From positions 62,001 to 126,000 of the forward strand of contig KZ537972.1 in the NCBI GenBank assembly GCA_000934665.2: DNA of 64,000 bases, in the 5' to 3' direction. The position numbers and the translations under genes are program-made. The notes under the pieces are model-generated. The model was given only the letters and a program-made list of their open reading frames with translations. It searched no databases and was not told where the DNA came from. This document shows, in pieces, positions 3,001-61,964 of this stretch (positions within the stretch are counted from its first letter, which is position 1; each line of letters begins with the position of its first letter). The DNA is from Catajapyx aquilonaris (Eukaryota).

Positions 3001-6000
3001 AATGATCCATTCGCGGAAAGCCATTTCTCCGGCTTAAATCTAGCGGTAACTCTGCCCGTGAGGGAATTTGTCCGACCAAGGGTGGGAGGTATTAGGATAA
3101 ACACGATTATAATGTATGGTTGCCTGTGGAGAGGACTCCCGGAAGGAAGCTGGCAACTTAACCTTTATCCGGTGCGGTTTGGAATCGAGATTTTGTCCTG
3201 GGAGCGGAACAGACTGCTCTGGAGCAGGATGGTAATGCAATCTGTTGCCAGTGTTTTAAGTAAGGGTGCCACAACCGGCTGTAATTAATTGCATAAATGA
3301 GAATCACTACATTTTGGAAATTTTCCTGAAACTATAGACAGTTTCGTTCTAACGTTCCTCCTTTCTTTATCTAACATGCAAGCTCAGCTTAATATATGGG
3401 AGGAAAGGCATAGCCTTCCCTTGCACCTCTTTTTCTGAAGGAATACGTGGGGACTGGTATTTGGGAGGCGCAGGGAGGCGAGTAGTTTCACGTTTAAATG
3501 TGTCGTGAAACCACAACCCACGAAAGAAATGTTACCTTTTACTGCCATTTTACGCTCGGGTCACAGTAGCCCCCGTGTCGATTAACTTGATGGAAAGCAG
3601 TATACACGTAGCATTAAAACTTGAGCTACGTGGGAGGTGGAAATTTGAACCGGATCCGGAGCTTCAGGTTCTATAAGGTGCGTAATGAGACTGGCAAGAG
3701 GAATCGGGTTCAAGTGTTTATGGAGGCCGTTTTTAGGGAGCCGAGGCAATTGAGAGATTTGTTTTAGTGATAGGTAAATTCGGCGACAGTCAGATGAATT
3801 GATTTTTGTTGATATGACCCAAGCCAGAAGAAAGGTTCCTAAGAAATTGAGTGGTCAGTGGCGGCTCTTCCTCGTGCCCGCGTGGAGATGAGATCAAGGG
3901 GATGTTCTCTGGAGAGGTCGGCGTCCCCCGTCCGCGGCAATTTGGACCCAAAGTCCTGCGGGCCGGAAAGAAATGGATCCAAATCTCAGGGGCCGAGCCT
4001 CGCCTTTGTGTACGGAGCCGTGATGGAAAGCTAATTCACTCCCACCCAAGCTTCCCAACCCCTCCTCTCGAAAAGTGAATCGCATGAATTCTTCATGTAT
4101 GGACAGTAGGGATTGCCTTACTAGCCAGTCTATTTTTTTGGGGGGGGGGAGCTGCCATATTTGTCAGCATCGTGTCGGTTATCCCACCATGAGAGAATAT
4201 ACTGCCTTTCACCCTTTTGCGTTGAATATGGCCGGAAAAAAAATGTGGGATCAATATTTGCACTGTGCCGTCTGTTATCATTCAGATATCAAAGGAAACA
4301 TTGGAAGCTGGTTTTAAAAATAGGGGGAGATGGAACAATAACGGTGTAACCTCCTCCCCTTTTGCCCCCGGAAGGATCATTATATGGGTTGTAAAATGCG
4401 GAAGGTTCTTTTTTTTCCATTGCAGGTGTGAGTTACATGTGCGTGGAATTTCTTTGACTGGAGGAGCGTATCTTCCGTTGGGAAATTCAAGGGGAATTTG
4501 ACTTTCAAAGCGGGATTGACGCGGTTATGGATGGTATCGAGTAGGACCTCGGAATTCATTGCAGATGGAATAAAAGACCTGAGCACTTCATGGAGCCGGG
4601 ACCGGTATTGGAATATGAAGTGGGAATTATCCGGTATTGATGTGAAATAAATGCTTTTCGCACACCCTACTTTTTTGGAGCTCAGTTAAAGCGGCACTTG
4701 CACCAGTGGATGTGCTGGTTATTCCAACAATGGCTATTGGAGAGTTCTGAATAAGCCGCCATGATAGAGTGCGACAGTATCAAATTAATTGCGAACTTTA
4801 CATCGATTCCCTCTTGCAGCATCTTGATAATAGCTGTTGTAATATTTCCTTTTCAATCGTGCGAGCTGGCAAGTTGCATTAATATAGAGTTGCATTTTCC
4901 CTCCTGGCTTCAGTGGTGCTCGAAACTTTAGTGCTTTGGATGGCAGTAATAAGAACAAGAGAGAGCCTCAAGGATTCGAGGAAAGCAAGGAGCTTCCATG
5001 ACGAGTGGAAAGGCAGAAGTGCTTTCTTTTTCAAGTGAGATTACATATTCTGTGTATGCCTGATTCTATAGGGCCATAATGTGGTAGAACAAGGGGCATA
5101 TACGACGGTATTGCTACATAAGTCCGTTGTACTGAGGAATTTGGGCAGGTACGTGAGAGGATTTTGTGCGGATAAGTCGGAAAGTGGTTAGGCCGAGAAT
5201 TGCTCTAATTTCTCTTACGCTCCAGTTGACTCATCTTCAGAGGTAATGAGGATAAGGCTCAGATCTCGGATAGTTTGCTAATGTACGTGGCTTGAGTATA
5301 GGTGTTGCCAGGATTAGGTCAATTTGCTTATCGCTATGTAGATGTTAGTGGTGTAAATGTTTGCTTGATAATGGGGATTCACCAGTACATCAAGGAGAAC
5401 AGCGCATACCTTGCTGGCACACTCTGCATATATTACCCGAGACGAAAGGAACAGCTGGCAACGCGCTTAATTTGCAGTGCAGCAGCGAGTGGTGCAAACG
5501 ATAACATTCCCAGTTATGACCTGCGGGGTTCTTCTGGGCTCTGGGGCTGCATAAATCGTGGGCAACTGCGTCTTGAAGACGGTGGCCATGTTTGGCATCA
5601 GCAAAGAGATGACCGGTTGGCATGGTGCTCATAATTAAACTGGCGGTTTAATTAAGCCGAAACCTCCGCATGGGGCAAGAAGAAGGCCTGATTTCGCAAG
5701 TGGAGATAACTGCGTTTCTCCCCCTGCGGATAAGGGTCGGGTTGACATTTCATTTATATTCCAAGCTTCGTATTATTGAGCGGCGACTAATTGCAAAACC
5801 TGCGTGTTCATCACCGTCGTAATCATACCTGCTATGTTTGGGGCATCCCTGTGGAGGCCTGAATATTGCATCGTCCTGTTTGATTCATGAGGAAATGAGC
5901 AGAGGTGAGGAGGCTTTAATTTGCAAACTGGCCGACTTTGTGATTTGGTCCATTGGGAGGGGTCTAAGGAAGGCGGAAGGAACAATATATAACAAGGCAA

Positions 6001-9000
6001 AAGAAAGCCATTCGTCTTAATATTCCTGTCACCTTTCGGTCTCTAATCGGAGTTTCCTGGGATGCAGGGCTAATGCGAGTCTTTTTCTCACATCACCCAT
6101 TTCTCTTCGTCGTTCGTAATCACGTCGATTTCCTCCGGGGACCTGCCTGGAAAGTTGCGAGAAAGAAGAGCACGGGAGAAAGGTCTCGTCCTATCCTGAT
6201 TAATAAAACCAGCTTTGTGGCAGGGTGGGGGTGGGGGATGTTGAACGAGGTGCTGCTTTTTCACGACGTGGGCTTAAATTCATATTTTTCCGGAAGCTCC
6301 AGGATGAAAGGAGGTGCCCGTGGCAAGAAGACAAAGGTGGTTCCCAAGTGATTGCTTAGAAGAAGAAAAAAAAAATGGGGGGAGGGGGGGGGGTATTTCT
6401 TTTGCGCAGGCTTTGATGTTGCACTGGATTTACTTGCGGAGGTGGTTAAATATTCTGTTTGAGAGTAATTTTCACGCCTTACCTGATTGTTATGAACTAC
6501 CAAGTGCTGACTGGGAATTGGGTATCCTGTCTGTTCTAATGGATATTAATCAGGAGCTTGATGCTGCAGCACCAGATTAGCTGCATGATTGTAATGAACA
6601 TTTGCACTGCAGTGATTGCGGAGTGAATAAGTAATGGCAAGATCACAGTTTTTGTGCTGTTGATTGCGCAAGGTGTCGAGAAACGAACCAGATTTAGCGT
6701 GTAGGTTTTTACATGAAAATGTCATTGAACTTTAAGGTCGTTTTGACTTAATGTGAAGACTTAATGTAAATTTTTTTATTAGAAATTCAAGTACTGTGCA
6801 ACTTCTGCGACAAGGGGAGAGAGGGTAAAATGAACTAATTGATTTGATCAAGACATGTTGGGGGGATGGCATCGTTGGGAAGGGCGTGGATAATTAAGTG
6901 AATTTCGGGGCTTTGCCCTAAAATCTAAAGACAGCGGCATTGCTTATTCATTGCCTGCTCCGCCAAATACACTGGAGGAGCTTGTTAGAAATTGAAAGCG
7001 GTCCATCTATTGCATACTTTTGTTCCTTATATTTCGTCTCCTCCCCCTGTATTCCAGTCCCCTCTCCTTTCATTCTACGGGATCCGATGTCCTCTGCATT
7101 CCAATCGGCTGTTTTCCCCCGCCGTAACGAGTTCGCATGCAGAGTGAAGTCGAATTATGCTGAATATTTCGCGCGAAATGGGTGCAATCTTGGAAATAGC
7201 CGCAAAATGCGGGTGCTTCTGTCGAGAAGCGTTATACATTAATGAGTATCTTACGGTGTCTGTTTGACCTCCCGATAGTTTGTATAGTATCTTGCAGAGA
7301 GAACTGGATGGGATATAGTCTTACAAGGCTGGCTTCTAGCGATGAAAGGATTCGTGGGATCCATCGTGGGTGGAGCTATAGCTACTGGCTTTTTGATCCG
7401 AGGTGCCTCTCGACAGGAGACATTTCCGACAAAAGCCCACAGATATTGACATCTCACACAGGGAGAGGGCGTTTATCCGGGGGAAGAAAGTTTTTGGAGC
7501 CAACATCGCGCCAATAGTTCCAACTTTGTAGCGCACTTTGCGCGGAACTTAACACCACTTGTTTTATTGCTCCAGAGTGCATTTTCCCCAAGTGTTTACG
7601 GACCATTTTAGCCAGCATCCCCCTCCGAAGTCCCCTCAATTGACACCTTATCTCGTATATCTCCGTGAATGCTGCAATTATTAGCACCGTCTATAATCTG
7701 GTAGCTGGATATGGACATGTGTTTCTCACTGACATTTGAAGCACCTTGTATAATGTGATTATTAGAAATTCTGCACCGGGTCTCGCACACAGATTGTGGA
7801 AAAGGAGTTTAATTTCTTGAGCAGGAAATAATGCATCTTGTGTGCCTGGCAGGAAATGTCTGAGATGCGTAACGCGACCAGAGTGGCATTAGTGCGGCAT
7901 AGTTAGATATCCTCAATTCCCAGTTTAATCACAGGTGGGCTCGGTAATGAAGCGTTGGATGGAAAATGAAGATGCTCTGGCGGCTTCCCTCCCGATACTT
8001 AATTCGCAATTGAGCGGCCGGAAAACCTTGCCTCTTGGCCCCCGTCTCCTTCCTTTCCCCAATCCTCCAGAAGCAGAAGCAGCCCCCTTTCCCCTTGTAT
8101 GTTATAGGCGACCGCCAATTACCGGCAGGAATGTCCTCTCCTGGGAGCAGTGCAGAGGGAGGGTACTTGCGTCAGCATGCGCAGGAAAAGCGAACGAAAT
8201 GAAGGAAGCCGAGCCTGCAGGTGAATTATGCATTCGTTCAGGCAGAGGGGGGAAGCTTGTTTTAAGACCACCTTGGCCCTCGCTGATATGTTGCATCCGG
8301 ATCAAGTGAGAAGCATCTGGCTACTCCCGGACCCAAATGGATGGCTATCCAATCGTCGTCGTATGCGTTATTCAGCGGGATCGAACAATGTGCAGGGCAC
8401 TGGCTAGGTTCACGCACAGGCGCGCAATTCTATACAGAGTGAGTCAGAACATCCTCCAACTTTGCCCTTTGTTCCACATAACTACACTTGAACCGACTTG
8501 AACTGAAGCCGTACACAAGCACAAGCATAAACGCGGAATTCAGGCTTAATCTCTGCCAGTGCCAGACTATACACACTGTATACCCGGCCTCTTATTCCAA
8601 CGACAAGCAGCACCGCAAATGGAGTTCAATTAAGGCTCCCATCAAGCATAGACCATCGCAGCTCATCGGGGAGGAAAAGCAGCTAGAAGGGGAGGGGAAA
8701 GGGAGAAAGATCCTCTTTCTGGGGGCTTCTACCAAGTTTATAGCTCATGGCAGTCGCAATCCCTCAATCAGCATTCCGAGTGCTTCGTTCCACTGGATAC
8801 TAACTTCATCCTACCGCCCCCCAACCCTCTTTTCCGGCTTGGCTTTTCTTTGATTGACCGACCCTGTCAGTTGGGGCTAGGGACATCCTCACTTTTAACC
8901 CGACGACGACCCTCAAAAGATGGGGCTGGACGGTTTTCTTGGCTCGGACAAGATAAAATCAGTCTCGTAAGCTGGGTACGTATAACATGGAGCAAGGTCG

Positions 9001-10933
9001 TACGTGACAAATGAGGTTTGGGTTAATAAGACTAATAACAATGAAGTAAGACGAGCTTCCTTTTGGGGAGGGTTTCGGGAAAAGCGAAAGTCCTCGCCGC
9101 ACCCCCCCCCCCTTTTGAAAGGTGGACAAAAGCGGAATGAGAGACTTGTGCCGGCGAAAGCACTTCTGCGGCACAATACATGCAGGCGAACTCCAAATGC
9201 AGGCGAGCTTTGTGAGTCGGTCTCATCCATAACGCTACCTTCAGCGTCTTCCTGCCTGGGCCTTTCAAGAGGGAATATCGGGACGGCGCCATTTTTGCAA
9301 TTAATGAGAAAGGCGGGATGTGGCTTCTTTTGCAGCAGGCAAACTTGATGGCGCTTTTGAATATCGGGAAGGATTACTTCGGGTCTTAGTGAAGACAAGC
9401 GGCAGGCGGGTGAGGGGGGTTAGATGCCTTTTTAAGGTAGGGTTTTCGGTAGTTTGCATCACACTGCCATCGGTTCTCGCACTTTTGGCGCGTTTTGTTG
9501 TCAGCTAACAATCGCTGGGATTATGTCCCGTATTGTCCAAAGTTGGTGAATTACAAGGTGTGATGGCAGGTGTAACATCTCAGTTGCTAGTCGTGTCATC
9601 ACTAGAGAGACTAATTTCTAGCTGCATTTGATAATATTACTCTTATAATTGTGTGGCTGTTCATTAGTTCCGCATATATTTACTGCAGAAATCATAATTA
9701 GCAGAGTTACATAGCTTGAGGATATTGTCAGGACCTACCTCGAAACATGGTAGCAATTAGTGGGAGCGTTCTCCAGCAGGATTGACTAACAGGGGATGGC
9801 ACAGTTATTTCTTCGCCCCTTATTCGCAACTGTGCTAAAAATCAATGGGCTGCTTCATATGCATCATCCGAGAAGATCCGTTTTCTTCCATCCATTTATT
9901 TTCCATTTCTTTTGGGAGAAATAAGGAAGCGAGGGGAAAACAACAACGGGTGCCATACTGTTTGAAGAGACGGCAGTCGCTGTCGCGAGGCTGTTTCCTT
10001 TCCCTAGAAAACCCGTCGGCGCTGCAGGGGCTCTCCTCTCATCATATGAAAAAAAAGAGAGAGAAAAATAATATTCGCGAGATATATTCGGAATATCAAA
10101 CCCCGCGATTTTACGAGTCCCGAACGGTGTAAAAGTAGAGGACGACTAGTCTGAAAAAATCCTCTTCTTTATAGCAGCCCCCTAGTACTTCCTGGAATCT
10201 TAGGCCCTGGCCAAGTTGAGCAGATAGAGTGGAGGGTTGGAGGAAAGGCCGCGGGTTCAGTGGAGTGAACAAGTCTCTCCCCAGCCTTTCTCCTCAATTT
10301 TCATTCCTGAGCTTCCTTCCACCTTGCGCTCGACTAGTTAGTTAACTCCCGAGCTTTGGGTTTCTCTCCCCACAAGAGTTTGAAGGGGGGTTGGGGGAGG
10401 CTGTGGGTGGGGAGGAAAGTGAAAGCCTACGGTCAAATACGTCCACTAATTTAATGCCCACCGCTAGTTGCGCTTAAGGAGTGGAGAGTCCCGACCTCAA
10501 TTTCGATGCCGCTGATAAACACAGGCTCTGGAAGTGGTAGGCGATGCCAATAGTATAGGGGAGATAGGCCTGATATTACAGAAGGATGAAGAAGACTTTG
10601 TGAGACTCTTCGTCTTATCATCCGGTTGCAGGTCCTCATATCGGGTACCTCACTTTGATCTCCGTGAAGCTTCCCTAGAGATTTCGAGGCTGAGGGACAG
10701 GTGGGAATGGAGGATCTGGCCCCTCCAAAAAAGAGGGGAACAAATGGCGAATAAAAATAGTCGGGGCTCCATGTAAACATGGGACGAGAGAGGCCATTTC
10801 AGATCAAAAGAGTTTGGGACTCCCGGTATGGACGAGCCCAGGGTGCCTTTGGGACTTGGAGACGGAAAAAAAACGACGGCCAATGAACGGCAGTTCTCGT
10901 ATGACAAACATGGCCCGTAGCGGTTGTTCCTGA

Positions 10934-11067
10934 AATGTTGGCAATAAGTGAGCCCAAGTTGCCTACGTGCCAGGATGAACAGAAGCTGAACTGCCCCTGT
11001 AATGCTGGCAATTTGTGAGCCAAGAGAGGAGCATACGTTGCCTACATGTCAGGATGAGCAGAAGCTG
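10934..11067. repeat. Imperfect local duplication containing GTTGCCTAC.TG.CAGGATGA.CAGAAGCTG twice
   Basis: 10958-10988 vs 11037-11067 match at 28/31. The upstream parts aatgttggcaataagtgagcccaag and aatgctggcaatttgtgagccaag also match. Confidence 0.85.
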
Positions 11068-12887
11068 TTGGTCTCTTGCGGACTAGCAATATTTTAATTT
11101 GACCTGAGCCCTAATGCTATGCAATTGGTCTTCGTACAGTGTGGCGTTGAAAGCACTGGGGGTAGTGCATTGCATCCCTGTTCGGCGTACGTCACATGCA
11201 GTCATTCCCCAAGGCAGCCGTGTAGGCAACATTGGTTCTAGGGCTTTTATCCTGATATGGCGTAAATTACCCGCCGCGGCCGGGGGGAAATTTATTGGGC
11301 GGAAACGAGTGTGCGAGCTGGAAAGCAAAGGGTATACTTTTTCGCACTTGGGACCCGCTGACGGAGATGGAAACCCGGGAATTAAGAAATAGATCTGCTG
11401 ATAGTGATAGTAGGAATCTGGCCGGCATATGAAGGGGGTGGAAGAGGGCGCCTCCCTGAAATCTGGAGATGAGGATTGCGGTTGAAGCGGAGGAAAAATG
11501 AGCGACAAATTCAAAAGGGAATGGCGTCGCTCTCGTTTCTCCCTCATCGAACCCACTCACTTCAGATATGATTTTCCGGGTGGTTGGTTTCCGGAGGAGT
11601 ATTTCGGCCCTTTATTCCTGCGGAGAATGCAGGCCAACACAATGTATGAGGGTTGGGAGGCGGGGGGGGGGGGGGGGGGAAANNNGGGGGGGGGGGGGGG
11701 GGGGGAATATAACTTGTGGTTTTGCCGAGTTGCAAGACTTTGGGGGGTAGCAAGCTGGCGCACAATGGCATGGAGTTAGTCACGTTCTACGTCGGTGTAT
11801 ACCTGACTGGGGCTATAGAATCGTTGGGGATTGATGAGGAGGGGGAAACTGGGATGGTATAAGAACTTCTCTATTATTTTGTACATTAAGTTGACCGAAC
11901 CGCTACTTATACTGACCATACTTGTCATGGCACACAAAGTAGAAGAATAGGCAGAAGTGGCAACTCCCAGAGACCGCGCCTTAATCGGGCAGGAACCCCT
12001 TGGTAATATTGCGAATGGGAATTGGCACATCACCCCTGTGTCTGGGAGCTGTGCGGCTTTCTCATGGCGGCTGCGCTGCAGGGCCCCCTCCCGTGTTCCG
12101 CCAGATGTGCCCAAAAAGATAGTTGGCCCAGGTCCTTGGCAGTGTCGTGACCTCTCCAGCTCCGGTGTTTGGCGACGCCCCTTTATTTGGGGCGCGTCTG
12201 TCTCGGACTGCGATACGGGCAGTGCAGTGACGGATTTCCAATAAGTGTCTCCGAGTGATTGTGGTATTCGTTCCCGTTCGCCACCAACGGGGGTCAGCTT
12301 GAAGTGACAGCAGCTTTCTTTCCCTTCCCAACATTTTCTCCGGATACTCTTTTCCTCCCGCTCGCGAAAAAAGGTTTATTGAATTCTGACTCATGCTTTG
12401 AATGCCCATTGTCCGGCTTTGGGTTGATTTTGGTCACAATGGTGCCCGTCCTAATTAATCGGGCTTGTTAGTGACGGGAGAGACTCGTGACCCGGTGGCA
12501 ACATATGGCCAAAATGGTGCTGATTGAGGACTGGGTGGGTATATATACGTGTGTGGTGGTGTGGGGTGGTGGGGGAGTTTCATCTTGATGCTGGAGGCGA
12601 CAGGCGTGGATTGCGCGCGATGTGCACAGCGCAGCACCTCCTCTCCGACACGGTACAGTAGTAGGGCCAACGATTTCGGCATTGATCTTCCAGCCTGCCA
12701 CCTGTATGGCCGTGTGTACTGCCACCGGATAAAAATAACTCCGACACGTCTCCGGTCCTGCCCCCTTAAAAAAGGCGGGCGCCATGTGACATGTGTGTTG
12801 CCGGGCCATGTGACTAGTGATCGGATTGCTCAAGGTGTAGTGTTTTGAAAGTGATAGTGTGTGCGGGTGGTGTGGTGCAGGAGCAGA

Positions 12888-13016
12888 ATGCCTGTGCTTT
12901 TCTTACCCAACGCTATGGCTACCAACGGCTATAGGCTACTATCAGCCGCCGGAATGGATACGTTACAATCCTTCCTGAAAGAACATGGCAACGAGTGCAT
13001 CCGACAATTCGTGCAG
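12888..13016 (+). CDS. Candidate alternative first coding exon of liprin-alpha: MPVLFLPNAMATNGYRLLSAAGMDTLQSFLKEHGNECIRQFVQ
   Basis: ATG at 12888 (also in-frame ATG at 12915), 43 open codons with a natural, helix-like composition, ending CAG|GTAAAA in phase 0, compatible with the 55694 exon. A promoter-like region lies immediately upstream. Confidence 0.65.
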
Positions 13017-16000
13017 GTAAAAAAAAAAGCTGATATTCTCTAAAGGACTGGGACGAATGTGTTATCGGAGATGCATCAGGATATCCTATGCATAACTTAC
13101 TGCCTTTTTCCGGGTTGGAAATAGACACGTTTCACTGTTGACATCCAGGACAGGCGGCGTTCCGGGATTATCCTGGAGGCTACCGTGTGTGTATATATAT
13201 CGACGGCAGGTTGTCAATCAAGAGGAAGCATTGATTAAAGGGGGCTTTGGATCTGGTTGTGGCGGGAAGGCTTGACGTAGATGCGGTGAGGCCGGGGAGG
13301 AAGTTACATCCCTCTCGGATCCGGTGCTTGCCTTGCATTTATGCAAAGGGAGCCCTTCTGGGACTTTGTCATGTCAACCTAACCTTCCGGGGTACAGTGT
13401 TGTGGAACGCCAGACGTAAACGCCGCGGTCTTGTTGTTTGTGTCCTTCCAGCAGACTTGGGGAATATGCGTGTTTAATTATTTGTGGGGCTACAGGAGTG
13501 AGGCATATTTCTTATAAGCCAGTTGGGCGGAAAATAGGAGGGTATATGTCGGGAAACTGACGTTTTCTATCAGGCGAAGTTTTTTAAAGTGGGAATTGTG
13601 CCAAAATTCGGCCGATAGTTGATCTTGGCTTGAGGGAACTTTTGCAGTGATTTCAGTGATTTTCAGTTACCACTGAATAGAATGGAAGTGTCTGATTCTG
13701 ATTGATTTAATCAATGATGCACTTATCGGGTGTGTCTTAGTGCAGTCCAAGTTACAATGCGTTCATTTTTATGTTTTGTGGATGTTATTTTTGGAAAGTA
13801 TATGTGAATGTTGCTAGTTTACGTTGCGTTATCAATTTCAGCACAAGCATGCCTAATAGGCTCACAAATTAAAATATTAATCATTTTCAACAGACTGCGC
13901 GTCCTGCACGTACGACCTAATGTCGGCTTATAAATGGTCAGGTACTTTTTCCCAAGTTTTTGCGAATTTTAAGTGTCACAGCAGTGTGAAATCCACGAAA
14001 GGTCTAGAGTTGAGTGTCTCTCTACACAGCAAACAGTTCCGGTACCGGCAGTGAAAACGGGAATGTTCTTACTACAGTGTCGGACTTAAATATTTATACC
14101 GCGTGCAGCTGGTGCATGTACGAGTAGCAATCAGAGAGTTGACTGGATGCTTCAAATTTAGTTTTTCTCCCCGGTCTGGAGCACACTTTGCTATTTACTA
14201 CTGCCCCGGTCCCTTTGCTGTTGTCTTGTTAGTGAAACTTGTTTAGCCGTCCTTTAAATCGTTTGAGTTTGAATTCAACGCGTGCAGTTACTCTCTGAAA
14301 GCGGGTGCACATCACATAAACATTATTTGGGGCACAATAAAGCTGCTCTGCGACAATACTAGTATATGATGTTGGATTTAATCGGTATAATAGAGCACAT
14401 TGTTGCAGAACCCTTATTGTGCAAAAATAATGCTTACGGGAAGTGTACAAATATGTAGCGGGACAAATAGTTATTTGAATAGTTAAACTGACTTTGGCTG
14501 ACTTTGTTATTGATGTACGAGGCTGATAATGTGTGGGTGGTACAAAAAGTCGGAAATGTGCTGATGGAAATGTCCGACATAAAACAGCACGCGATTTGTG
14601 TGGTTTTAACGAGATAATTCTGCATGTTCGTTGGAAGTTGCCGGAGTAGTTCGGTCGTTACAACACAACTTCTTCTCAACGTGTGCCCGCAGATATTTTA
14701 TCAGGTGGTCCACGAATTGCTGAGAGATAAAAATAATTGTTACGTTTAAGCCAATAATATTCACAGCGGTTTTGGTATAAAGGCTCTTTATGAACTACTA
14801 ACTGCACTCAATTAGCAGGAAAACATCGACATTTGTAGTCATGTTGTGATTTGCAGTCGCATTTTAACATTTTGCTCCAAATTATCCTTTTTTGGGGAAA
14901 TTTTTATTACCACGTTAATTGAAAGGTACAGTACATAGCTTGATCAAATGAAAACGAGAATTTTGCCATACAAAATTTAAAAGCCAGTATAGTGAAGATG
15001 TACCTTTCACACGTGATCACTTTGCAGTGTATATAGTGAAAGGCGAAGGGATTGTTTGAACTCTGAATTAGCGTTGAGTCCAAATAAAAAGGCTAAAAAA
15101 TCCATCCACACCAACAACCAATTCGGCATTAACAGCAGCCCATCAAGCAGAATGACGGAGATAACTGTCACATTCATGAATTTATCGATTATGCCACTAA
15201 GGAAGCGGTACTAACATTGCGACATTTTCATTTGGAATGCATACATAATTTAAGGGAAGTTGTGTTGTGTACTTGCGTAATTTTAATGCGATATTCACTT
15301 TAACGTGCAAGTGATTTTCTTGCAAATCAGCAAAAGACAGTTCTGTTCCTTTGTGCCATTAAATCCCTCTCCTAGCACGTCGTCTTAATTATCTGCAAAA
15401 CCTTTGATCAACAGCACTGAACGAAATCCTTTTCTCATTAAATCTCACCCCCTCCTTATCTGATAGTTAAGTCATCTTACGCAAATCTGACAGCCGTTAC
15501 AGTTACCCAACGAAAAGGCAACAACATATCAATCAACCCATGCAGATAATCGTGTTACTCACCTGACAGCCGCAATCATGCAGAGCACTCCTTGCAAAAT
15601 AATGCCTAGCACTTGGTTAAGGCCCGTCCCAGTGTATCCGATAGTCTCGAGAAACTTTTGAAGACCCTTCGGGGGGACCTTTGGTATTTTGCGAAAAGGC
15701 TGTAAACCGCATCAACCCTCCTCCGTCCTCAGTGCGTGGCAGCAAAAGTGGGCCTTGACTTAGTAGGTTTTCCTGGAAGGAAAATGAAAATCCTTCGCTC
15801 CTTACTATGATAAGGGGGTGAACTGGAAGTAAGGAGATAAAAAAAATAGAGGGAGGGGGGGGGGGAGATAAGGGAGGGGCGAAGAAGTGAAGTGGAAGAG
15901 TGGAAAATTTGTCGCCCTAGGTGACGTTATAAGGGAGGATGGGAAGTTTGTGAATACGGGAGATCATAAAATTCATGGTGGAGGGATTGAGATATGGAAC

Positions 16001-17103
16001 TTGACGCCACCGGGAGTTTGACTATGGTTGCTTTTGGAAGAAAAAAAAGAAGAGAAGAGGACAAGGGTAGCAGATGCAGATGCCTTTTGTTCCAGTAGCT
16101 GCGCCTGGAAAATTCCTGCCTGTTTCTCTTATTGAAAAACTTGGATTCGTCCCGCGATGGGAATGTGGCCCTCATTTTCAGAGTTGCATGGCGCGAAATG
16201 ATTCGATTTGGCAATAATTTACGAGGCGGGCCTTTTGCAGCAGGGAAAATCTTTCCGGAACAATAAGAAGCTACCAAGTAATTTCTAGGAAGGGCCGGAT
16301 TTTTGGGGCCTTCCCATACCTGCATGGCCCCCGCTTCCATATTCAGAAATGAATTTGACGTTTTATACATCCATTCTGACAGCCGTTAGGAAAGTTTGTC
16401 ATTTCACTTCCCTCTAAGCTATATCTGCGACCATATGTAGTAAAATGGACGGTTTATGTGGCTTTTCAGCCTTGGTGGTATCTATAAAAGTAAATTGAAC
16501 TCCCCACTTGTCTTCTACAAGTTTTAATTAAGCTACCGGGTTATATTCTAAGGGGTTTTTGTGCAGTTTGTTTTAACCAAGACATATTTGTTATACAGAC
16601 GTATTCTCCCCCATTTTTATGACTGGGAATGTAATACGCTGTAAAAAGTAAACGCATCTGCTGAAGTGGCGGGTCGGTTTTATATTTTCTAGGAAAGCCA
16701 TTCCTATAAAGGGATAGGCTGGCGAATGGTGATGGAAATGGACGAATTTACTATTACTGCCAGCTTTTTTTTCTCTCTATCCCGACTCATAGTGCGAATG
16801 CATTACTACTTTAATTGTGGTATTTCAAACGGTCCATTTCATGTCACTTCAATTACGTGATGGGTCCTTGCAGTTCCAATTACGTGCAGCGTTGGCACTA
16901 ATTTCCCGTCTTTGAGATTAGGGAAGAATAGGGACTAATGAGCCGTTTTCGTGAGGCAGGCTTGAGTGCAATCTTCACGTGGAAATCCAGACGTTAGGGG
17001 GAAGGAGAGAGAAAACGAGATTGCAGAAGAGAAATTGGTGGGGGATAATTTTTCCTCTCCCGTTGTAGAAATAAGTTGTCAACAAGCCCCTGATAGTAGT
17101 GCT

Positions 17104-17132
17104 CTAACAAATGTTTCTCGTTTCAGGTAAGC
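17104..17132 (+). other. Candidate recursive splice site (ratchet point): branch point, polypyrimidine tract, then CAG|GTAAGC
   Basis: CTAAC (17104-17108), TTTCTCGTTT, CAG (AG 17125-17126), immediately followed by near-consensus donor GTAAGC, on the sense strand of a very long intron. Confidence 0.6.
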
Positions 17133-20100
17133 TGCGTTGGACACCTGCTGGGAGCATGCATAGTTAAACCGACATGTGACGAACGTCATGTAGCGGTGAG
17201 CCTTTCGCTCCTGTGGGAGCTATTTTTTTTTTTTCGGACCAATATGTGCTTGAATGGGATGGTGTATTGCAGGCACCCTTGAAGGGGATGCAACCTGGTT
17301 GGTCCTCGCTTATTCACACACTTTTACGGCAAAATCAATATCGGCACGTGAGCAGTGCATCCACATTGCGTGGGAAAAGGGGTAAAGAGAAGCAAGATGC
17401 ATCGATTTTCCATCCGGCGCAAGTGTACCCAGGGTTCAACGATTTTCGTTGAATGGAATTCTTACACTGGATTCACAGAGAGGTCGGGCTTGCAGCACAG
17501 GTCTAGAAGGCAGGCTGAGCTGTGAGCTGATTAGAATATTACATGCCAGGTTTTTATGACCGAACATGCCCGTTAATTACGCGGTGAGAAGGGACAGGGA
17601 CAGTTTCACATCGGAGATGGGCATTATGGGTTAATCCCCGTTTTATTCGGCCCATGTGCTGCGCCTTGATGACTCCGCTGACATGCATTTGCCAGTCCCT
17701 TGGGGAGGAAAGAGCGCAGAATGCAACTAATTCCAAGTCCAGCTGGCATTCAGGTGGAAGTTCATATTAAAACTGTGTTTACCAGCGTAGATTTTCCATA
17801 TTACCAGGAGGAGCCTGGAAGATGAGATTCCTCCGGCTGGCATTTTCCTGCAGAAGAGAAGATTGGTGTGCTTCTTTGGAAGGAAGGGGGGGGGGGGGGN
17901 NNNCATAGTAATTAATTTGTACCTTGCTGTCAACAGGGGAAAGGTCGAGGCAATTCAACAGGCCTTGGGTCAGATTAAGAGGGGCGGAGAAACTTGTTCT
18001 CAGGGGATGATTGGGCCCGGGGGCGAAATAATTACAACCCGTTTTTGCTAGGGTTTTTTTCCCCAGGAGTCAATGAACCGCTTGAAAAAAGTTTCAGCTC
18101 CCCCCAAAAATTGGATCCGCTTATAACTGATATTTGAGGGGGACATACTGTAACGGCCTAACGTGGTGGCAGTGCGTGTGCCGGAGCCACGAGGAGGCTT
18201 ATTTATAGTCTGTTGTGGCGGAATTAACCCAGGGACAAAACAGAAATTAATTGCAGCAGGAAGCAGCGAAGGGGGCATCAGAAGCACCGGTCCCTAGAGC
18301 ATAAATTTTGTATAAATGGAGATCCGGGGCGCGGGCTAAAATTTTATTTTGCTTAACTGGATTTGCAAGTGTGCGCCGGTGTGACTAGTAATTAACGGTG
18401 TCGAGGCTCGCGGGCGCGAAAAGGCTCAGGTACTAGATGTCACGGAGCGGGCTTGGAAACGTCACGTTTTGTGAGTTGACAATGAGAGCACGGGGGAAAA
18501 AAGCAGGTCTTTTTACAGTGGGATAGGCTATTCGTTGGTGTCCCGCGGGCTCTTTTTGGTAGGATTGTACAGGGTGAGCCATCACGCGGCGCTCATTTCA
18601 CTAGGGACTAAATGGGGGAGATAATTAGATTCAGGGGAGGACAATATGAAGGTGCTGAGAAAGTGGTGGTATCAAGTGTGGGGATGGCCGCGGCAATTTA
18701 GTTTATGGGTATAAAGCCGGAGAATTTAAATTTGAACTGGGGAAGTTTTTTTTTTAAAAAAAAAGCATGACCTGTTTTCATAAGTTACTGTAAATAGGCT
18801 AGGCGGTGGAGGAGGCCTCGGAGAGATCAGATGCCTTGAGGGTTGTAAAAATATTGCTGGCGGTGCATTACAGTGCTAAAGGATGGCCTACTGTGTATAG
18901 ACTATGTCACTGTAGCCATCTCAATTGAGGAAAGTTTTTACAGGGTGTGCATAAAGGTGCTGTACACAAAACAGGGTTTAAAAGCCAGGTCAGGTAGCTA
19001 CAATGTTGTAGATGTTGGAGCTTTACAAGTGGCTATAAAAGTAATGGTGTTGCTTTTGAATGGACTTACAGTACATGTTCACATGTGTTTATGTTGCTCT
19101 GTAGCGTCTTCATAGAGTATAGTACAGTATAAGAATGGTGTGATGTAACACGAGTCAATGCTGTACATTAAATGCAGGATGCCTATTAGTCCTATTGCTG
19201 ATGCGGGGTAGTGAATGAGCGGCTTACTTTAGGATCACAGAGTTCCGGGGCGCATTGATGCATTGCGGTGTTCTTTTTCATGCTAATAACCTGGAAGCGT
19301 CAGTCGATTTGCGCTTCATTTATCCTGCAAAATGATTCATGGGATAATACATTACCGGCCAACACTGGGTAGAGGGTATGAAAATTGTGCGAATGATTCA
19401 AATGGTGATGCAGTTCGCGCTGCTTTTTTGTGTTTACAGAATGGCAGCAGAAAGGTATAGGCCCCCACAGATGCGAGGGTGGATTTCATTCAACCGGGTT
19501 TCCACACCCCCCCCCCCCCNCCCCCCCCCCCCCCCCCCATTTGAAAAACCAGTCTGTTGCGGTTGCAGGAACATGTTTTTCCGTGCCTGTTGGGATCATT
19601 GCATTTCTTGTTGTACGGAATGATTCATTGAATGGCCTTAAAATTCTGCCATATTGCACAACTCGATTTGAGAATGTTGCTGATTGGCTCCGGTAGAATT
19701 TAATTCACTGAATTGGAATTTTTGTACTTCATTTATTGTGAACTTTGCTGGAATGAGACTTGCGTCAGAGCGACGTTCCAGACTAATATCCAAATTGCGA
19801 TGCATAATGTAACTGATGAATATTGCAGGCAGGTAACTTATAGGTAATTCATGCTGCTGTAATCACCTTTGAGGACTGGTGCCGGCGGGAGAGTGTGCCA
19901 AAAGCGAGATGCCAACTAATAATCCGAATGCAAAACCGGTGCCAACTTGACTCCGGCGGCGCTAACGGATTTCCCCATTTTCTTTTTCCCTGGATCTCTT
20001 TCTCTTCTCATTATTTGATCAGGGCTTGTGGGGAAACTGAGAGGAGCCGCAGGGAATCGATCTGCGGTAGCTGCCGAAGCAGGAAGACGACAAAATGAAG

Positions 20101-21696: not shown

Positions 21697-24600
21697 GGAC
21701 TACTTTTTGGCTGTATAATCTTCAGTCGCTTGGCTGGGGGGTTAATTTGCCTCTCCGGCTGGGGGACTGTGGACGCCCACGGGCGGATATGATCCCCAGG
21801 GCGCAGATGATGAAAATATTAGCCACTCGGCGTGATGATTGGCACAGCATTCCATAAAGGATCACCTCCGATGCGTATTCAGCCCCGTCACTCATCAGCT
21901 CGGCCAACCAACCGTTCCCCGCCTAGCCTACTGAGCAAGCCTCGTTCAAATTGTCCCCTGGACAAATTAAGCCGCCGCCATGTTATTTGTCACATAATCC
22001 AAATAATTGGTTCGCTCTGGATAATGAGCGCAGGGCACATGACAATTATTTACATAAAGGGCGCAATAACCGCGGCGTAATCGGGCAATAATGTAGTGAA
22101 GTACGGCGGACCCTGTTATGTTGTTTACATTTTTTTAAAGGTGCGGTTCGTTATGAGCCAAAAAAGTGCGACTTGGGATTTTTTGTTTTAGACCGAGTCG
22201 AAAGCAATGTCCAGCCTTTCAAAATGGCGAACGAGCCAATAAACGACACCGAACATTTTAATTATTTGCGCATCGGCCCCAATTTACTGCAGTTTCGGCA
22301 ATAAAACATATCTAGCACTATCGATCCTCCAGTCGAAAAGGGTTATGATGCAAAAATATATATATAGCACCGGGGATTCTTCCCAGCATCACTAGGTGCG
22401 GAACCAATAGGGGTTCTTAGATTTATTGACGTTTCACTCCAGAACAGTTGGCGCGCGAATTAGGAAGTGGATTCTAAAATGTCGAGATTGAGCCATGTAA
22501 GAAAGGCGTAAGTGGATCGCGAGTTTAGAGAGAGAGAGAGAAAAAAGGGGGCGCTGGGAATGAAATTGGTGCGATGTCGTCGAATGGAAGGTAATTTGGG
22601 GCTTGGCCACGGGAGCCTCTCGTTCCTCCAGGAAGAGAATGGCGAGGGGGTCCGGCCCCGGGGCCAGCACCCGCATGCTAATGGGCCAATTGCACTCCCC
22701 CCAATAAGCCTTCCCGAGTTCATGCAAAAGAAGAGAACCGGGTAGCGTGGGGGGGGGGGGGGGGNGGGGGGGGGGGGGGAAGACGGCGATGGGGACCCCC
22801 CCAAAGCGAAATGGCTATGGAATTCTAATGCCCTGCGTCCCGTCGCTTTTTCTATTCAATTCCGCTTCTCATCAGGCTTGCCAATGCTGGCTCGTTTTGC
22901 AGTGAGGGAGGAGGGGCGGATGGGTGCAAGGGGAGTCGGGGAGGATGACTCTCCAAGAATCATTTTGGGTTCGATGCTATTGGCTTGGGATTTGTTATGC
23001 AGCGTGTGCTTTGGGTGTACATGTACCTGCGTTCTCATGATGACCTAATTGTAATTGAGTTGGAAGCGGATGCCTGGAAGTTCAGCTAAGCCGCAAAAAT
23101 GGCGGTAGTGCCTGGCATGCAAGTAACTGTTAGAGAACATATCAGTGCAAAGTTCAGCATTACACGAATCCTGCTTATTACTAAAAGGGCTCAGTTTGGT
23201 TAAGTGACTAAACTGTTTGCATTCTCACACTATAGGTCTTCTGTAAATAAAAGTCAGCAACAAATGACTATGGGATTTTGAGATTTTAGCGTGAATTACG
23301 ATCCGTTTCTATCTTGGAGCTTAGAGCTTAAGCAGTGGCATTGCTTAAATCGAGTCTGTTTTTAGTCCCTTAGATTCATGGTCTGTTGTAGATTAGCTTG
23401 GGTAAACAAATGTAAGTTCACGTGCCGTAGTATCCGTAGGGAGATTTCCATCACCTTTTTCAGCTTTTAAGCCTCGGTATTTGAGAATCAGAGTTGGCTG
23501 CCTGAAGGGGGAAACTTTTGTCCTTGCTCAATACTAAAAGGAGGACTTTCCGCATCCTCGGTAAGCTTTTGGATGGGGGTTCTACTATTTTTTTGTGGAT
23601 AGAAGGGAGCAAGGGCTTGCATTTGCTGAATTCCTACCTTTGAATAGACTGTTTTTTCCCACTTTCCTTTTTTTGTGCGTAAACTTTCGAAACGCTCTGT
23701 CAGTCCGTCCTATCTGCAAATGAAACCAAACTTCTTCGGACACATTCAGCTTTTCATAAAGCCTTTATGCATTATTCAAATGCTTTTTCCTCTCTAGCAC
23801 CGGAATACATTTGTCTTACTGAACAAAAAAGGGGCACGCTGCGGTTTTCGACACCGTTGGTGCTAATCATCGATAAACTATCAGACTCTCTTTTTAACCC
23901 CCTCGCCTTTGCATTAGACGCGATCCTTTACTTCCAAACGAGATACTTATTTTTGAAGCTCATTTTCCGGAAGCTGGTGGTATCAACAGATAAGACAATC
24001 CCTGCCTCTGGGAAGCTCATTTTTGCTAAAGATCTGAAGCGACTTCGATCGGGCTAATATAGAAATCAATCCCTTTTGGGTTGGGGGAGGAAAGTTGAAA
24101 ATGTGCAGAGTAAGGGAGGAGGAATGAATATTATATGATTTACAGCTAAAGGGATGTGGGAATGCGAATCAGTTCGAACGATTTTGTTAGGAAAATGGCA
24201 TCTGCTTATCCCTAATGTGAATGTACAAGTTTTATGAATCCTTACAGTTCAAAATGCTGATTGGATTACGGTCATTACCACTGTCCAATCACCCACGACA
24301 TGGGTGCATGGGGTGGATTATGAGCTTTACCCATTTTTGCATATTTCTTACATACTTTACCCGATTAGTAGGATATGACAAGTTCAGTTCTGGAGAGTAG
24401 CATAAATGTTTTACCGGTTTTTTCCACTTTCTGTGCCAAATATGGGGTTCATATTTGCGTGGTGAACATATGTTTAAAAACGCTAATGGAACTCAAAACC
24501 TTATGTTTTTAATGAGTTGAAATCACTGTCTTTGCCACTTGCACGTATAGTGAAATAGGTTTTTCGATGGTTCTTATAGAAATGTAACTGCTTACAGTGC

Positions 24601-27600: not shown

Positions 27601-30600
27601 TGCTAACTTCTGGTGGTGATGTAACAGTAGTTTTTTTTTTTTTTTTTTNNNNNNNNNAGTGGCTTGGTTCATTCCGCACGAGTTGCGGATTTTTAGTCAG
27701 TTTATTGGATTTGTTTTGGTTCTGGGATGGGGATGGCCGCAGCTACATGGAAGTATACTAAAAGCAAGTCCGTTCCAACTGCATGGTGGGCGGTTCTGAT
27801 GGGTGCGTCAGTGTGACTTGCCTGATCCAATGATTTTGAGCTAGTCTGATTATTTGGATGGATCAGGCTGGGCCTCGTTACATAGGAAGTGATAATATTT
27901 AGTTTACAGACAGTTTAAAATGTCAGCGCGTAGGCATAAATTCTCGTCGTCTGAGAGTGCATCACATACGTCACTGGGTCCAGAAACATGGTCATAAAAT
28001 GAGCACAGCATTATATTTAAAATATATGCGATATCGCCTGATTCATCGACACTGAATACTGTACTTGTGTATAAATTCATTAAAAAATTAATCGCTGCAT
28101 GAAATTTATGATGTAGGCACATACAGCTAGTGCAGTGTGAATATAGTAATTTAGAATGGTAATACGAGTCATATGCTAGTCGATATTCAGATAAAAATAT
28201 GTAACTTCAAAATTTCATTCCCCTTTTAATGATTTTATAGATTTATAGTTTTCAGTCTATGATCATCTGGCCATACTTGTTACTGTGTTAATTAATTGCA
28301 GCCCCGGACATGCAGAACTGTTCCCCTACCAGTATATACGCCTTGTCTACGGATAGTAATTGCAGCTAAAATGGCGGAATAGTAAATCACTCCCGAGTTA
28401 CAAACTTCCGTGACGCATCCTCGTAGGAGGCAGAGTAGGATTAGGCTTGCAGTCAATCCATTAGACGTAATCTCGTCATTGGCAAGAATATGTTTTGATG
28501 GTGGATTTCTGCCCCGTTGCATTGTTGATTGGAGAGTGGTAGTGCATTGTTGAGTCCAGTGTTTCAGAACAGGGCAATTAGAGGGGACAAGTGCGTATGT
28601 GGGAGTGGGGGAGTTATTGTGCCTGGCAGGGAGGGAATCCTGATGGCTTGCCGGGTAATTGGCCAGCAGGCCGTGTTGACGCTGTGGCGTATGTAAACAG
28701 GGCCAGATTTCCAAATAACTAGCGACACCACCCACTCTGTACCCCTCCCTGTTTGAGATTCCAACGCCCGTAAAAATTCTGCCAAATGCTTGACATTGCT
28801 TTGCAACTGCTGTCCGGAACGCAGGCCGACACCATTTTTGTCAGCTATATAACCCCTACTGTATTTTTGCGATGCGGACTCCCAGTCATTTTTGTGACTG
28901 AGCATCATATTTTTTTTTCAGCCCGGGAATGGGTGCTTTGACGGCGAGTTTTATAGAGAGCACGTGGTCTCATTAGAATAAAAATGGAGGACGGCTGTAA
29001 TGAGGTGCTTGAAGTAAGGATGCAGAGATTGATCTCTTTTGTGCTCTGGAAATGGGGGACGGAAGGCTGAGGGTGTGCAGAAGGGCTCTTTTTCACTGGA
29101 GCATCACAGCCTGTTTTGCAAATACGTAGTTGTACTGCACAATAGTCATGCAGCCAGTACTGAATTGGAATGCATTTGTCGATTTCATGCGTGTCTGCAC
29201 GTGCCGAGGTGCGAATCCCAATTATTTGTACTTTGCTGTCAAAGCTCTGGGGCGATTTTATAGTCCTGAATATAACGCAGTGAATGGGTTTGAAAGCGGC
29301 GCCGCGGGTATCAAAAGGGGGAAAATACTGCTCAGCGGTTTTTTCACAGGAGGGGATGAAATTCAATTGTGTTTTTTTTGTTACTAATCGTTGAAAGTGG
29401 CAAAGAAGGCATCAAAGACTTATAACAACGTCAGAATTAATTATGCACTTTTAAAGCGGCAGTGCAGAAGCACATCATAGGTTTGCCCGAGGTAAAAGTC
29501 TTCCCTTGTTTTTCCGGAGAGTTAAAAAAATATAGCTGCGAATAATGTGAAAACCAAATATTTCGGAAGTATGATATTGAAATTGTGAAGGGCTTTAATT
29601 AAGTTGCTCCAGGTACGCTCTTCATATATGCAGGACTAGGATGTGTCAATAGCTCTCTTCCAACATTGACTTCACACGTTAATCTGCACCAGCCCGCACT
29701 ATATTAATATAGGGGAAGGGGCTTACATAGTTATTATACAGCACATGGAGTTTATCTGACGAGGAATATTAATTTTATTAGGTGCAATTTCATAATTGCA
29801 GCTTCCATATTTTATGAAACTCTTGACAGCAAGTTTCCTCTGCCTCGGAATTTTATTTCAGTAGAGGTAGTTGTAAACACCTTTGTGTCTGTGTGTAATT
29901 CTAGGAAAGGAAGGAAATAAAGTTGCCAACGCTAATGTCAGGGTAATAAGCTTGAGGAGTAGTCCCTTAGGCAAGACCCTTCCGGCAACAAATTGGCGAA
30001 AACTTATTTTCAGATGCGAGATCATTAAGGTGTGTAGGCGAGAGCCATAATTCCTGATTTAGAAATCCCTCCGCAGTCGGTTCCAGCCTTTTTCCTATCC
30101 CTGCGTTTCCGTGGAGAACGTTAGGCAATTGCAGTTTCATTGTAACTCTAACAAATGAGCCTTGAAAGCGGGCTCCAACAAGCTTCCTAGCCGTTTTTTA
30201 TTCAGCGACTTGGGCCACACGTATATCACGTGTAACACCCAGCCTCCTCCTCTTCCTTGCATCGATTTGATGCCGAAAATGTCCCTGTTCTTGGCCTTTT
30301 TTTTCGCAATTTATGTTCTGTCCAAACTCTTTCGGAGTTTCGGGTTATCGGGAAATTACTAGAAGAACATTTTGTAGGTGTGATTCACGATTAGAGAAGG
30401 TGGCGGTTAAATCTTAGGATTTTTTTTTTCTGAAAAGAAAAAGTGCGGGGGTGGTCTCTGGAAAGACGATTTATTTCAGATTAAGGGCTTTCTGAAGCAG
30501 CAGCTTGCTGTTCCTTATTCAGCTCTTTGTTGCTCGTATATATACATGGACCTGGTCCAGGTCAGGACCACTTAATCATGTTCATCCTGGAATGTAGATG

Positions 30601-33600
30601 ACCTGCAATGATGGCGAGTTCTTGGTCAAGACTCCTTTATATCGAGGTGATAGGCTTTAGTACATGGACAGGGCTGTGCGGGAACCGAAGTCGGGAGTAA
30701 TCTCTTCCGAGCCGTCGCAGGCTGTTAAGCCAAAGGACTCCCAAAAAACTGAACTTTTTTTCCCCCTCTTTCTCCTGGGTCGCCTTTTTTTTTTTGCTTA
30801 GAGACTTGGTCTGAAATGAGCACCTAAGTTCTTTCTCCCTCCCTGGGCCCGTCCTGCAATACGGGCTTTGCTTAATAGAAATCTGGACCTAGCTCAGCGG
30901 GAGAGAAATAAAAGGCTGGAGCTAACAGGGAAAGTTTTTGCCATGTTTTTGGAAACCCTAGCGTGCTCTCGATGCGTGTGATGCAGAATCGAGTGTGGAA
31001 ATGACTCAGGTGTGTCATCATGAGGTTAATGTTGGTTGGTCTTGCTTCAGTCCCCCCAGTCTGCCATCTTCTATTGCCTCGTAAAGCCCTTTTATGGGGG
31101 GCGTCGCAATTAATGCCGCGTCTTGTTTGTGACAATATCCATTCCCAAACCCCCATGGTTGGAACGCTGATGAGCACTTGTGATGGTGGGCAATGCCAGG
31201 ACAGGATGCATCATTTTGGTGGTACCAATCCCCATAGACTTGATTTTGGGGTCGTGATGAAATTTGGGAGGGTGGCCCATTGTTGGGCGGGGTCAACTGC
31301 CCCGGCGCCTAAATTGGAAGGTGCAGGGTTCATGGGTTGGCCAAAAGAGGGGCGGTGAAATTAGAGGTTTAAATATGTGTGGAATGCTTTTGTACATTGC
31401 GGTTGCATGTTGTATGGGCAGCTGGGCGTTCATTATGTTTATGAAGCTGTAATTTTGAATTCCAGGATCCTTAAAATGAAAATACGGTTATGAGTAGTGT
31501 AAATATGGGAGAGTAGGAAGGGGGGTGCCGTGAAATGAAAATTTTGCAGAGCAAACAGATCAAGGGCAGGGAGTAAATCAAGTTAGCCAAAAACACGGAA
31601 ACTCGATCCCACAATGGAAGCTCATTCATCATTCACCTGACCTTTTAACAAATTTGCTTCCAAGTCACAAAACAAACTATTGAGGGGAAATTGACTCGAA
31701 TCTGGCAGGCTGAAAATCAACAGCCCGCAGGACAGTCGCGAAATTACTTTCCCTTTTTGAATTTTTCAGGTCAAATTTTTTTGAGGGGACCAAGAGGATA
31801 CGCCCTCATTTTTTTTTCGATTCCTGGGAGAAGTTAGGTGCATTCCAGGCGGGGCTCTCCCTCTGGGTATGAAATATTGCGCCCCGGGGTTTCAAAACGG
31901 GGGATATTTCAAGGGGGCACATGTACATTAACTGGTGGGGGCCAACCAGCCAGGGGGAGACGACCATAAAGCATCCCCTTAAGTAGGCTTTGTCCATTTG
32001 GCCCCCCTGAGCAGCTCGCTTGAAATTAAATGCACGCACGATTCATAACCAGCCAGCCGTGTTTTCTGGCGGGTACCATTTCCGGCCTGGCGGTTCCGTT
32101 TATTTGTCATGTGATACAAATAGGTTCCAGTATTGATTGGCATCCCATATAGTTACGCTATGTAGATATGGACGTTTATGTGACATTTGATCGGATTTAT
32201 GCCGTCCGTTCTAGTGTGTACTTTGGGGGTACATAACGTAGCGTTAATGAGCCAGTTGCAAGCTACTGTAACGGGAGGGCATTTAATTATCTTGTAATTT
32301 ATAAAACTAACGGAAATTCAAGAGAGCTGATTACCCGAAACAAACCTCCATATTGGGCGCATGGGTTCATTATGGAGTGTGTCGCGGTCAGTGCCCGAAG
32401 CAGGTGCTGATTGCCACTTTTGTAATACTGCCAGTAGTTTACACCCGCAACTACAGGCGTGAGCATCGGGTAACGCAGGCAGAGTGTGGTTGTTTTGAAT
32501 ACAATGTTTTATAAATATTGCTCGAGGACACAAAACGTCAGCTTTTCCAATTTTCTAAAATTTTTGTGTTGATATGGTGGGCATGTACCGGACAGTCGTA
32601 ACCCTCGTGTATATGTATGGTCATGATGCTGATCCATCTGCTGGCTCGTTTTATACCCCAAGTTTTATCGTCGCGGGCCGGCAGATGAAAGTATACTGTG
32701 GTTAGGCTTTGTCGGGGAGTGTCCCAAAATAGATATATCCGGAGTCACCCCCACTCTCCCAATTCCCAACGTTCGTAATGGAACCACGGGTGTGAAGGGC
32801 AATTATTACCCCCAGAGCCAGAGAATGGGGGACGGGATAGTGTTGTTCACACGGTTTAGTTCGTGTCATGCACACAACCGGCAGAAGGTTCTGTGCTACT
32901 GGCGCCGCCTAACCAGTGGACAGGGGGTTTCCTAGTTTCTCCGGAAGATGTCGACGATTGCGAGCCAGGGTTGCGGGAGGCTCAAGTAACTCAATCGACC
33001 CAAGCCGGATGCAACCCTGCTGGCCTGGGTACAATGTGTCACATGAAAGGTGCAGGTCAACATCCAAAATTCAATTCGTGATGGCCCGTGATTGCGGCTG
33101 GTGGTGCTATCGATAATCTTTCGCCGCCTGTGGTTATATGAGAAATAGGTGGAGTCATAATTATTAAGAAGGGGTGGTGCATTGCCGCAAATTATTTTTC
33201 ACGTTAAAGCCGGGTTGTGGGCGTCTAATCGAAATTAAGTTCATTAAGGTTGGTCTGAAGCCAACATGATTACGAATGTAGAAGGATTTTATGGCGGTTA
33301 GAGGGGGGGGGGGGGAAGGTGGGCNGGGGAAGCTGGGCCGCTAAACTCTGCACCATTATCCCTCGATAGTCTGCAAGCCTAATGGACTGAAAACTTCACT
33401 CCCTGGTAATTCAGCCTGCGTTTTATACAAATTTTTTAGCCCCTTGTAGTTAACAATCCGCGGGGAAACCTCGAAACGCATACCTCAGTGCGGAAGGCTG
33501 GCTCTCTCCCCCTCCTCATCCAGCTTGTAATATCTGGGCATTTGAATTAATGGACACGATTTTTGTAAACGAGGAGCGTGTGGAAGATATTTTAGGTCGG

Positions 33601-55693: not shown

Positions 55694-55795
55694 GAATTTG
55701 CCACCCTGACCAAAGAGCTGAACCAGGCCCGAGAGCAGCTGCTGGAGCGAGAGGAAGAGATCGCCGAGCTCAAAGCCGAGAGGAACAACACCAGG
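55694..55795 (+). CDS. Liprin-alpha: Liprin-alpha internal coding exon (102 nt, phase 0/0), N-terminal coiled coil: [34 protein letters not shown]
   Basis: Acceptor ttctccccatAG (AG 55692-55693) and donor AGG|GTGAGT (GT 55796). The translation matches the recalled liprin-alpha/PPFIA/SYD-2 motif EFA.LTKEL...[22 protein letters not shown] and joins in frame to the next exon. This frame is not in the ORF track. Confidence 0.96.

Positions 55796-61964
<6,169 letters not shown>

Follow-up and report, generated by a model that had tools for sequence, protein, structure and literature searches.

A candidate fly-type recursive splice site in the giant liprin-alpha intron of Catajapyx aquilonaris

We analysed a stretch of 64,000 nt of the Catajapyx aquilonaris genome (assembly GCA_000934665.2, contig KZ537972.1, positions 62,001 to 126,000 of the forward strand; the window), which carries part of the liprin-alpha gene. 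We tentatively suggest that position 17127 on the + strand could be a used intronic ratchet point of the fly type, a zero-length recursive splice site whose 69-nt cryptic exon would serve for recognition only. This used-site reading is plausible, and nearly level with it stands an explanation by chance, which is weighed below. Order, spacing and strand of the sequence elements are all as such a site would require. As far as the letters alone can tell, 17127 has every testable feature of the fly ratchet points except the strength of the pyrimidine tract, which is borderline, and perhaps the position of the branch point.

The elements are the following, in window coordinates, with a slash at the splice junction and negative numbers counted back from it. 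Donor and acceptor scores, here and below, are approximate, being hand-made log-odds from splice-site frequencies and not MaxEntScan values.

17104..17108, + strand: branch-point-like CTAAC, with its A at 17107 (-20 relative to the acceptor)
17109..17126, + strand: acceptor half AAATGTTTCTCGTTTCAG, with TT at -6/-5 and C at -3
17127..17132, + strand: donor half GTAAGC, which abuts the AG directly (the candidate ratchet point, TTTCAG/GTAAGC), score 11.2-11.4
17127..17195, + strand: putative cryptic recursive-splicing exon (RS-exon) of 69 nt, open in phase 0 over 23 codons, reading VSCVGHLLGACIVKPTCDERHVA, not coding-like
17196..17201, + strand: downstream donor GCG/GTGAGC (GT at 17196-17197), which would define the cryptic exon, score 7.8
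17223..17234, + strand: run of twelve T (T12), 27 nt past the second donor

The original prediction had named the CTAAC, the pyrimidine tract, CAG/GTAAGC and a second donor 69 nt further on, and we found all of them on the + strand at the positions it gave; the sequence likewise confirmed that segment 17127-17195 consists of 23 codons without a stop in phase 0. At the junction the sequence reads ...CGTTTCAG/GT and follows the fly TT rule (-5/-6). A second branch-like motif, CTGAT, has its A at -34. Pyrimidines occupy 10/12 positions at -15..-4, 7/10 at -16..-7 and 13/20 at -23..-4, the tract being interrupted, and with this qualification the claim that 17127 is the best AG/GTRAG motif in the window holds. 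The ratchet donor outscores both real liprin-alpha donors in the window (9.8 and 8.3), and only 2 sites on the + strand, 17127 included, have a donor score of at least 11. GCG/GTGAGC is the sole donor scoring at least 7 in the 220 nt downstream of the site. On the window's + strand only 7 T runs reach a length of 10. The T12 run is one of them, and it presumably may act as a U-rich intronic enhancer of the weak donor before it.

The mechanism that we propose would begin with exon definition: CTAAC, the pyrimidine tract and CAG would be recognised jointly with the donor at 17196 as a 69-nt exon. The liprin-alpha exon 1, which lies off the window, would then be spliced to 17127; the segment in homologues ends ...LPQ, and a CAG or CAA ending of exon 1 is inferred from this. 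The exon 1-17127 junction would rebuild a strong donor, ..AG/GTAAGC, which would outcompete the weaker GCG/GTGAGC and would next be spliced to exon 2 at 55694. Nothing of the site would be left in the mRNA, and the intron of at least 55.7 kb would be removed in at least two steps.

The setting of the candidate is given by two coding exons.

55694..55795, + strand: liprin-alpha coding exon 2, which closes the giant intron (EFATL...NNTR, 34 aa, phase 0)
61776..61940, + strand: liprin-alpha coding exon 3 (ends ...ALDEK, 55 aa)

Read from the sequence, exon 2 is bounded by the acceptor ...CCCCATAG/GAA and the donor AGG/GTGAGT. The tblastn search with 120 liprin-alpha proteins matched the window solely at 55.6-55.8 kb and 61.7-61.9 kb. 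The N-terminal coding exon (MWNMMCDVMPTISED...NLPQ in homologues) was not detected in the window by tblastn at E<=50 (best E=0.3, noise), and a motif scan of the window for it gave nothing relevant. Because this exon lies outside the window, the intron that precedes exon 2 (55694) extends past the 5' edge and measures at least 55.7 kb, in agreement with the giant intron of >55 kb that had been predicted. The ratchet candidate is at least 38.6 kb upstream of exon 2, on the sense strand. Among the matches listed, many insects have an exon 3 protein segment identical to the one encoded here. For exon 2 the best match was 33/34 (the cricket Gryllus, a moth and a sea urchin), no 34/34 match was present in the best 120 of 4318 matches, and mosquito liprin-alpha differs from exon 2 at several positions.

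The base composition points to the same direction of transcription. In 2-kb bins G exceeds C in 30/32 and T exceeds A in 28/32, with a nearly uniform GC skew of about +0.1. Long transcribed regions are expected to show such a skew on their non-template strand, and the G/T excess on the + strand supports + strand transcription across the window. Around the site neither Rfam families nor tRNA genes were detected (0 each), and the region around 17127 is single-copy, with no repeat copy within the window.

The candidate was compared with the ratchet points of the fly. Duff et al. (10.1101/006163) described 197 Drosophila ratchet points in introns of 11-133 kb, with TT at -5/-6 in 196/197, a prominent pyrimidine tract, strong conservation, recursive branch points mostly at -36..-21 and a mean removed segment of 18 kb. 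Among fly introns >40 kb, 63% carry a high-confidence site, and the 3' motifs at fly recursive sites are very strong (Pai et al. PMC6110457). In flies a ratchet point depends on a short cryptic RS-exon (about 50 nt), which is skipped where the ratchet donor is stronger than the downstream donor; if the ratchet donor is weakened, this exon is forced into the transcript (Joseph et al. PMC8605326).

Like the fly ratchet points with cryptic RS-exons (kuz, Bx, Ubx-RP, Tet), 17127 is a sense-strand AG/GT in an intron >40 kb of a neuronal gene, with TT at -6/-5, a CAG/GTAAG core and a branch motif upstream, followed by a short cryptic exon (69 vs ~50 nt) with a donor weaker than that of the ratchet point (7.8 vs 11.4). 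The 18-mer TTTCTCGTTTCAG/GTAAG, 13 bases before and 5 after the junction, is common to 17127 and one validated D. melanogaster site, 2821707 in the 55-kb intron 3L:2796678-2851558, which the S1 table of PMC6110457 gives as high-confidence, with junction reads of 94, 66 and 35 and a motif score of 0.93. Unlike the fly ratchet points, the candidate has a non-dipteran arthropod as host and a tract weaker than typical. The A of CTAAC, at -20, is just outside the fly range of -36..-21, and the A of CTGAT, at -34, is inside it, both being motifs and not lariats. Fly RS-exons are generally out of frame, unlike the 69-nt exon, which keeps the frame. In flies, ratchet points are defined by conservation as well as by use.

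To our knowledge, neither the TT rule for -5/-6 nor the fly-type motif is known from vertebrates. Like the vertebrate RS-exons of the cadm2 type, the candidate belongs to a long neuronal gene, and its exon would be defined first and re-spliced from a regenerated 5' splice site; vertebrate sites differ in being few, with inclusion products that are typically unstable (PMC6110457, PMC6224609).

The explanation by chance, to which we give only slightly less credence than to a used ratchet point, holds that 17127 is an unused AG/GT in neutral intron, found by a best-motif search of 64 kb, and that the accompanying features (second donor, CTAAC, open frame) are coincidental. The counts of the bare core motif agree with this: on both strands of the window YAGGTRAG occurs 5 times vs 6.05 expected, with 68/100 shuffles reaching 5, and TTNYAGGTRAG occurs once, at 17127, vs 0.47 expected, with at least one occurrence in 35/100 shuffles. 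The bare core motif is thus no more than chance gives. Strong donors are not significantly depleted on the + strand (28 vs 34.6 ± 5.7 at score 8), and a strong donor-like site is therefore unremarkable in itself. A GTRAG follows 9.5% of random positions at a distance of 25-100 nt and 15% at 25-150 nt, and an open frame of 23 codons is expected by chance with a probability of about 0.33. The weak pyrimidine tract at 17127 also fits the chance explanation, as does the low frequency of recursive splicing in the set of Duff et al. (10.1101/006163), in which just 6% of fly introns >11 kb are recursive.

The combination of features behaves differently from the bare core motif. By combined score 17127 ranks 4th of 208 AGGT sites on the + strand; 4 sites of this strand reach its score vs 0.65-0.72 expected from Markov simulations (300 each), P(>=4)=0.003-0.007, and the best combined score on the - strand is below that of 17127. 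We then defined RS-like sites by features from the fly literature (TT at -6/-5, Y at -3, AG/GT and at least 7/10 pyrimidines at -16..-7). With a donor score of at least 5 there are 3 of them on the + strand (4426, 17127 and 55994) and 0 on the - strand, where 0.66 per strand are expected under neutral thresholds (P(>=3)=0.037); the expectation of 0.66 counts in favour of chance, and the confinement of the excess to the sense strand, 3 vs 0, argues against it. With a donor score of at least 9, 17127 stands alone vs 0.098 expected per strand (400 order-3 Markov simulations). CTRAY occurs at -18..-40 of 7.3% of random positions and CTAAC of 1.2%. Multiplied under the assumption of independence, the joint features come to about 7e-4 per strand by chance. 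This overstates the surprise, because the thresholds were set after viewing the site; for neutral thresholds we estimated about 0.1 such sites per window. Chance does not readily produce this combination, the features having been picked post hoc. The 18 nt shared with the validated fly site of PMC6110457 also speak against chance.

Several points weigh against use of 17127 as a ratchet point, among them the motif counts given above, the hand-made scores and the choice of feature thresholds after inspection of 17127. The crude acceptor score is 2.7 at 17127 vs 9.4 for the true acceptor of exon 2. With G at position -7, 17127 also fails to match the stricter pattern YYYNCAGGTRAG. Unusually strong 3' sites are stressed by Duff et al. 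(10.1101/006163) and by Pai et al. (PMC6110457), and the tract of 17127 is at the weak end: in the first 20 rows of part 2 of the S1 table of PMC6110457, judged by eye, pyrimidines make up 8-10/10 of the positions at -16..-7 vs 7 at 17127, one other high-confidence row of the table having 7/10 as well. The host is not Drosophila, and the fly rules are therefore extrapolated. Our literature search for recursive splicing in non-dipteran arthropods found no report. Recursive splicing has been described as rare in the mouse brain (PMC8797253), from which a large-intron genome may have a low prior, and the prior for a large-intron arthropod is uncertain. A metagenome scan with a 23-nt stretch spanning the ratchet point gave 0 matches, as did one with a 26-nt stretch of exon 2.

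An ordinary unannotated exon that happens to begin with GT, whether a rarely included cassette or poison exon within liprin-alpha or part of a different + strand transcript, is an unlikely source of the same signals. A 3' splice site, 69 nt, a 5' splice site and then a U-rich run make a standard exon-definition unit, and other acceptor-like AG/GT sites with downstream donors occur in the window, for instance at 55994. The first six bases of such an exon are donor-like, outscore the real donors and would compete against its inclusion (PMC8605326). The content of the segment also speaks against an ordinary exon: G or C stands at the third codon position (GC3) in 9/23 codons (39%) of the 69 nt vs 27/34 and 43/55 (78-79%) in the real exons, which is non-coding-like. 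None of 41 liprin-alpha proteins >300 aa has an insert between ...LPQ and EF...; in 38 of them ...LPQ is directly followed by EF, and in 3 other N-termini abut EF. The 40-aa translation of 17100-17219 had no match at E<=10 among the proteins of 71-2000 aa in a collection of 5.8 billion clusters, which is weak evidence; shorter proteins were not searched.

These results on GC3, homologues and protein matches also bear on a regulated coding RS-exon of the Ubx mI/mII type, by which some liprin-alpha isoforms would carry 23 residues between ...LPQ and EFATL...; we regard this as the least credible explanation. Its length is a multiple of 3, phase 0 is stop-free, and frame-preserving expressed RS-exons exist in flies, where Ubx m1 and m2 have 51 nt each (PMC8605326). 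As in Ubx mI/mII, the exon would start with donor sequence and keep the frame, and skipping and inclusion would both be possible. Unlike the Ubx exons, which are ultraconserved and coding, the 69 nt are non-coding-like and without counterpart in the 41 homologous proteins. A frame-keeping length and an open frame are expected jointly by chance with a probability of about 0.11, and the open phase-0 frame is regarded as a coincidence. The peptide, Cys-rich and hydrophobic, would fall within a conserved coiled-coil stretch, and no fragment of it was found in the 120 proteins that the exon 2 search had listed. With the ratchet donor at 11.4 above the downstream donor at 7.8, the fly model predicts constant skipping (PMC8605326). 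The inference of the original prediction is partly supported. For its first half, the anatomy matches a fly-type ratchet point with a cryptic exon as far as sequence can show; its second half, a switch to an in-frame insert of 23 aa, is not supported in view of the low GC3, the homologues without insert and the stronger ratchet donor.

If the zero-length ratchet point at 17127 is used, recursive splicing of the fly type (TT rule, cryptic RS-exon) would extend to a non-dipteran arthropod and would reach liprin-alpha, a core synaptic active-zone scaffold gene. Our literature search found no paper tying recursive splicing to liprin or PPFIA; the name of the fly gene gave 0 hits in the S1 table of PMC6110457, but the table uses FBgn numbers. 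Two provisional FBgn numbers, for Liprin-alpha and Ubx, gave 0 there as well, which is uninformative because the numbers are unverified and the table rests on S2 cells. A used 17127 would also offer a concrete site to mutate: weakening of the donor would insert 23 in-frame residues and not cause a frameshift, and the in-frame insertion would be a milder, tunable allele. If it is not used, 17127 is an ordinary chance motif.

A second ratchet-like site was detected at 4401-4433 on the + strand, TTCTTTTTTTTCCATTGCAG/GTGTGAGT, 12.7 kb upstream of 17127. This site at 4426 has 9/10 pyrimidines and TT at -6/-5, a tract much better than that of 17127. Its in-register donor is weaker; 2 nt beyond stands a perfect GTGAGT, and at 25-260 nt downstream no donor reaches a score of 5. 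At 31745-31777 (+) a good acceptor, CCCTTTTTGAATTTTTCAG/GTCAAA, is joined to a poor donor; together, 4426, 17127 and 31770 would leave intron segments of about 13, 15 and 24 kb, which resemble in size those of the fly. A broader scheme, in which the intron is removed stepwise outside Diptera at 4426, 17127 and perhaps 31770 (13-24 kb apart) and 17127 is in addition a regulated RS-exon able to add 23 residues to the N-terminal coiled-coil of liprin-alpha in some cells, appears very improbable to us. The possible upstream donor named in the original prediction, GTGCAG/GTAAAAAAAAAA at 13016/13017 (CAG/GTAAAA; 12980-13030, + strand), scores 7.6.

A very strong acceptor, TTTCTCTTTCCCTTGCATTTTGCAG/GTGGAT, is present at 55969-56060 on the + strand, in the intron that follows exon 2, 199 nt from its start. 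The 55994 acceptor is followed 60 nt downstream by the donor-like CGG/GTGGGC, with stops in all three frames, and the segment could be a poison exon or an alternative one. Past exon 3, in the following intron, about 170 nt at 62675-62843 match their own reverse complement (76% over 178 columns) and form a long imperfect palindrome or hairpin. The window has 31 homopolymer runs of at least 10, of which 12 are of G, and runs of N, 1-49 nt long, lie in or beside long homopolymers at 11662-11705, 17886-17903, 19507-19538, 22749-22779, 27631-27657 and 58419-58467, which looks like an assembly or masking feature.

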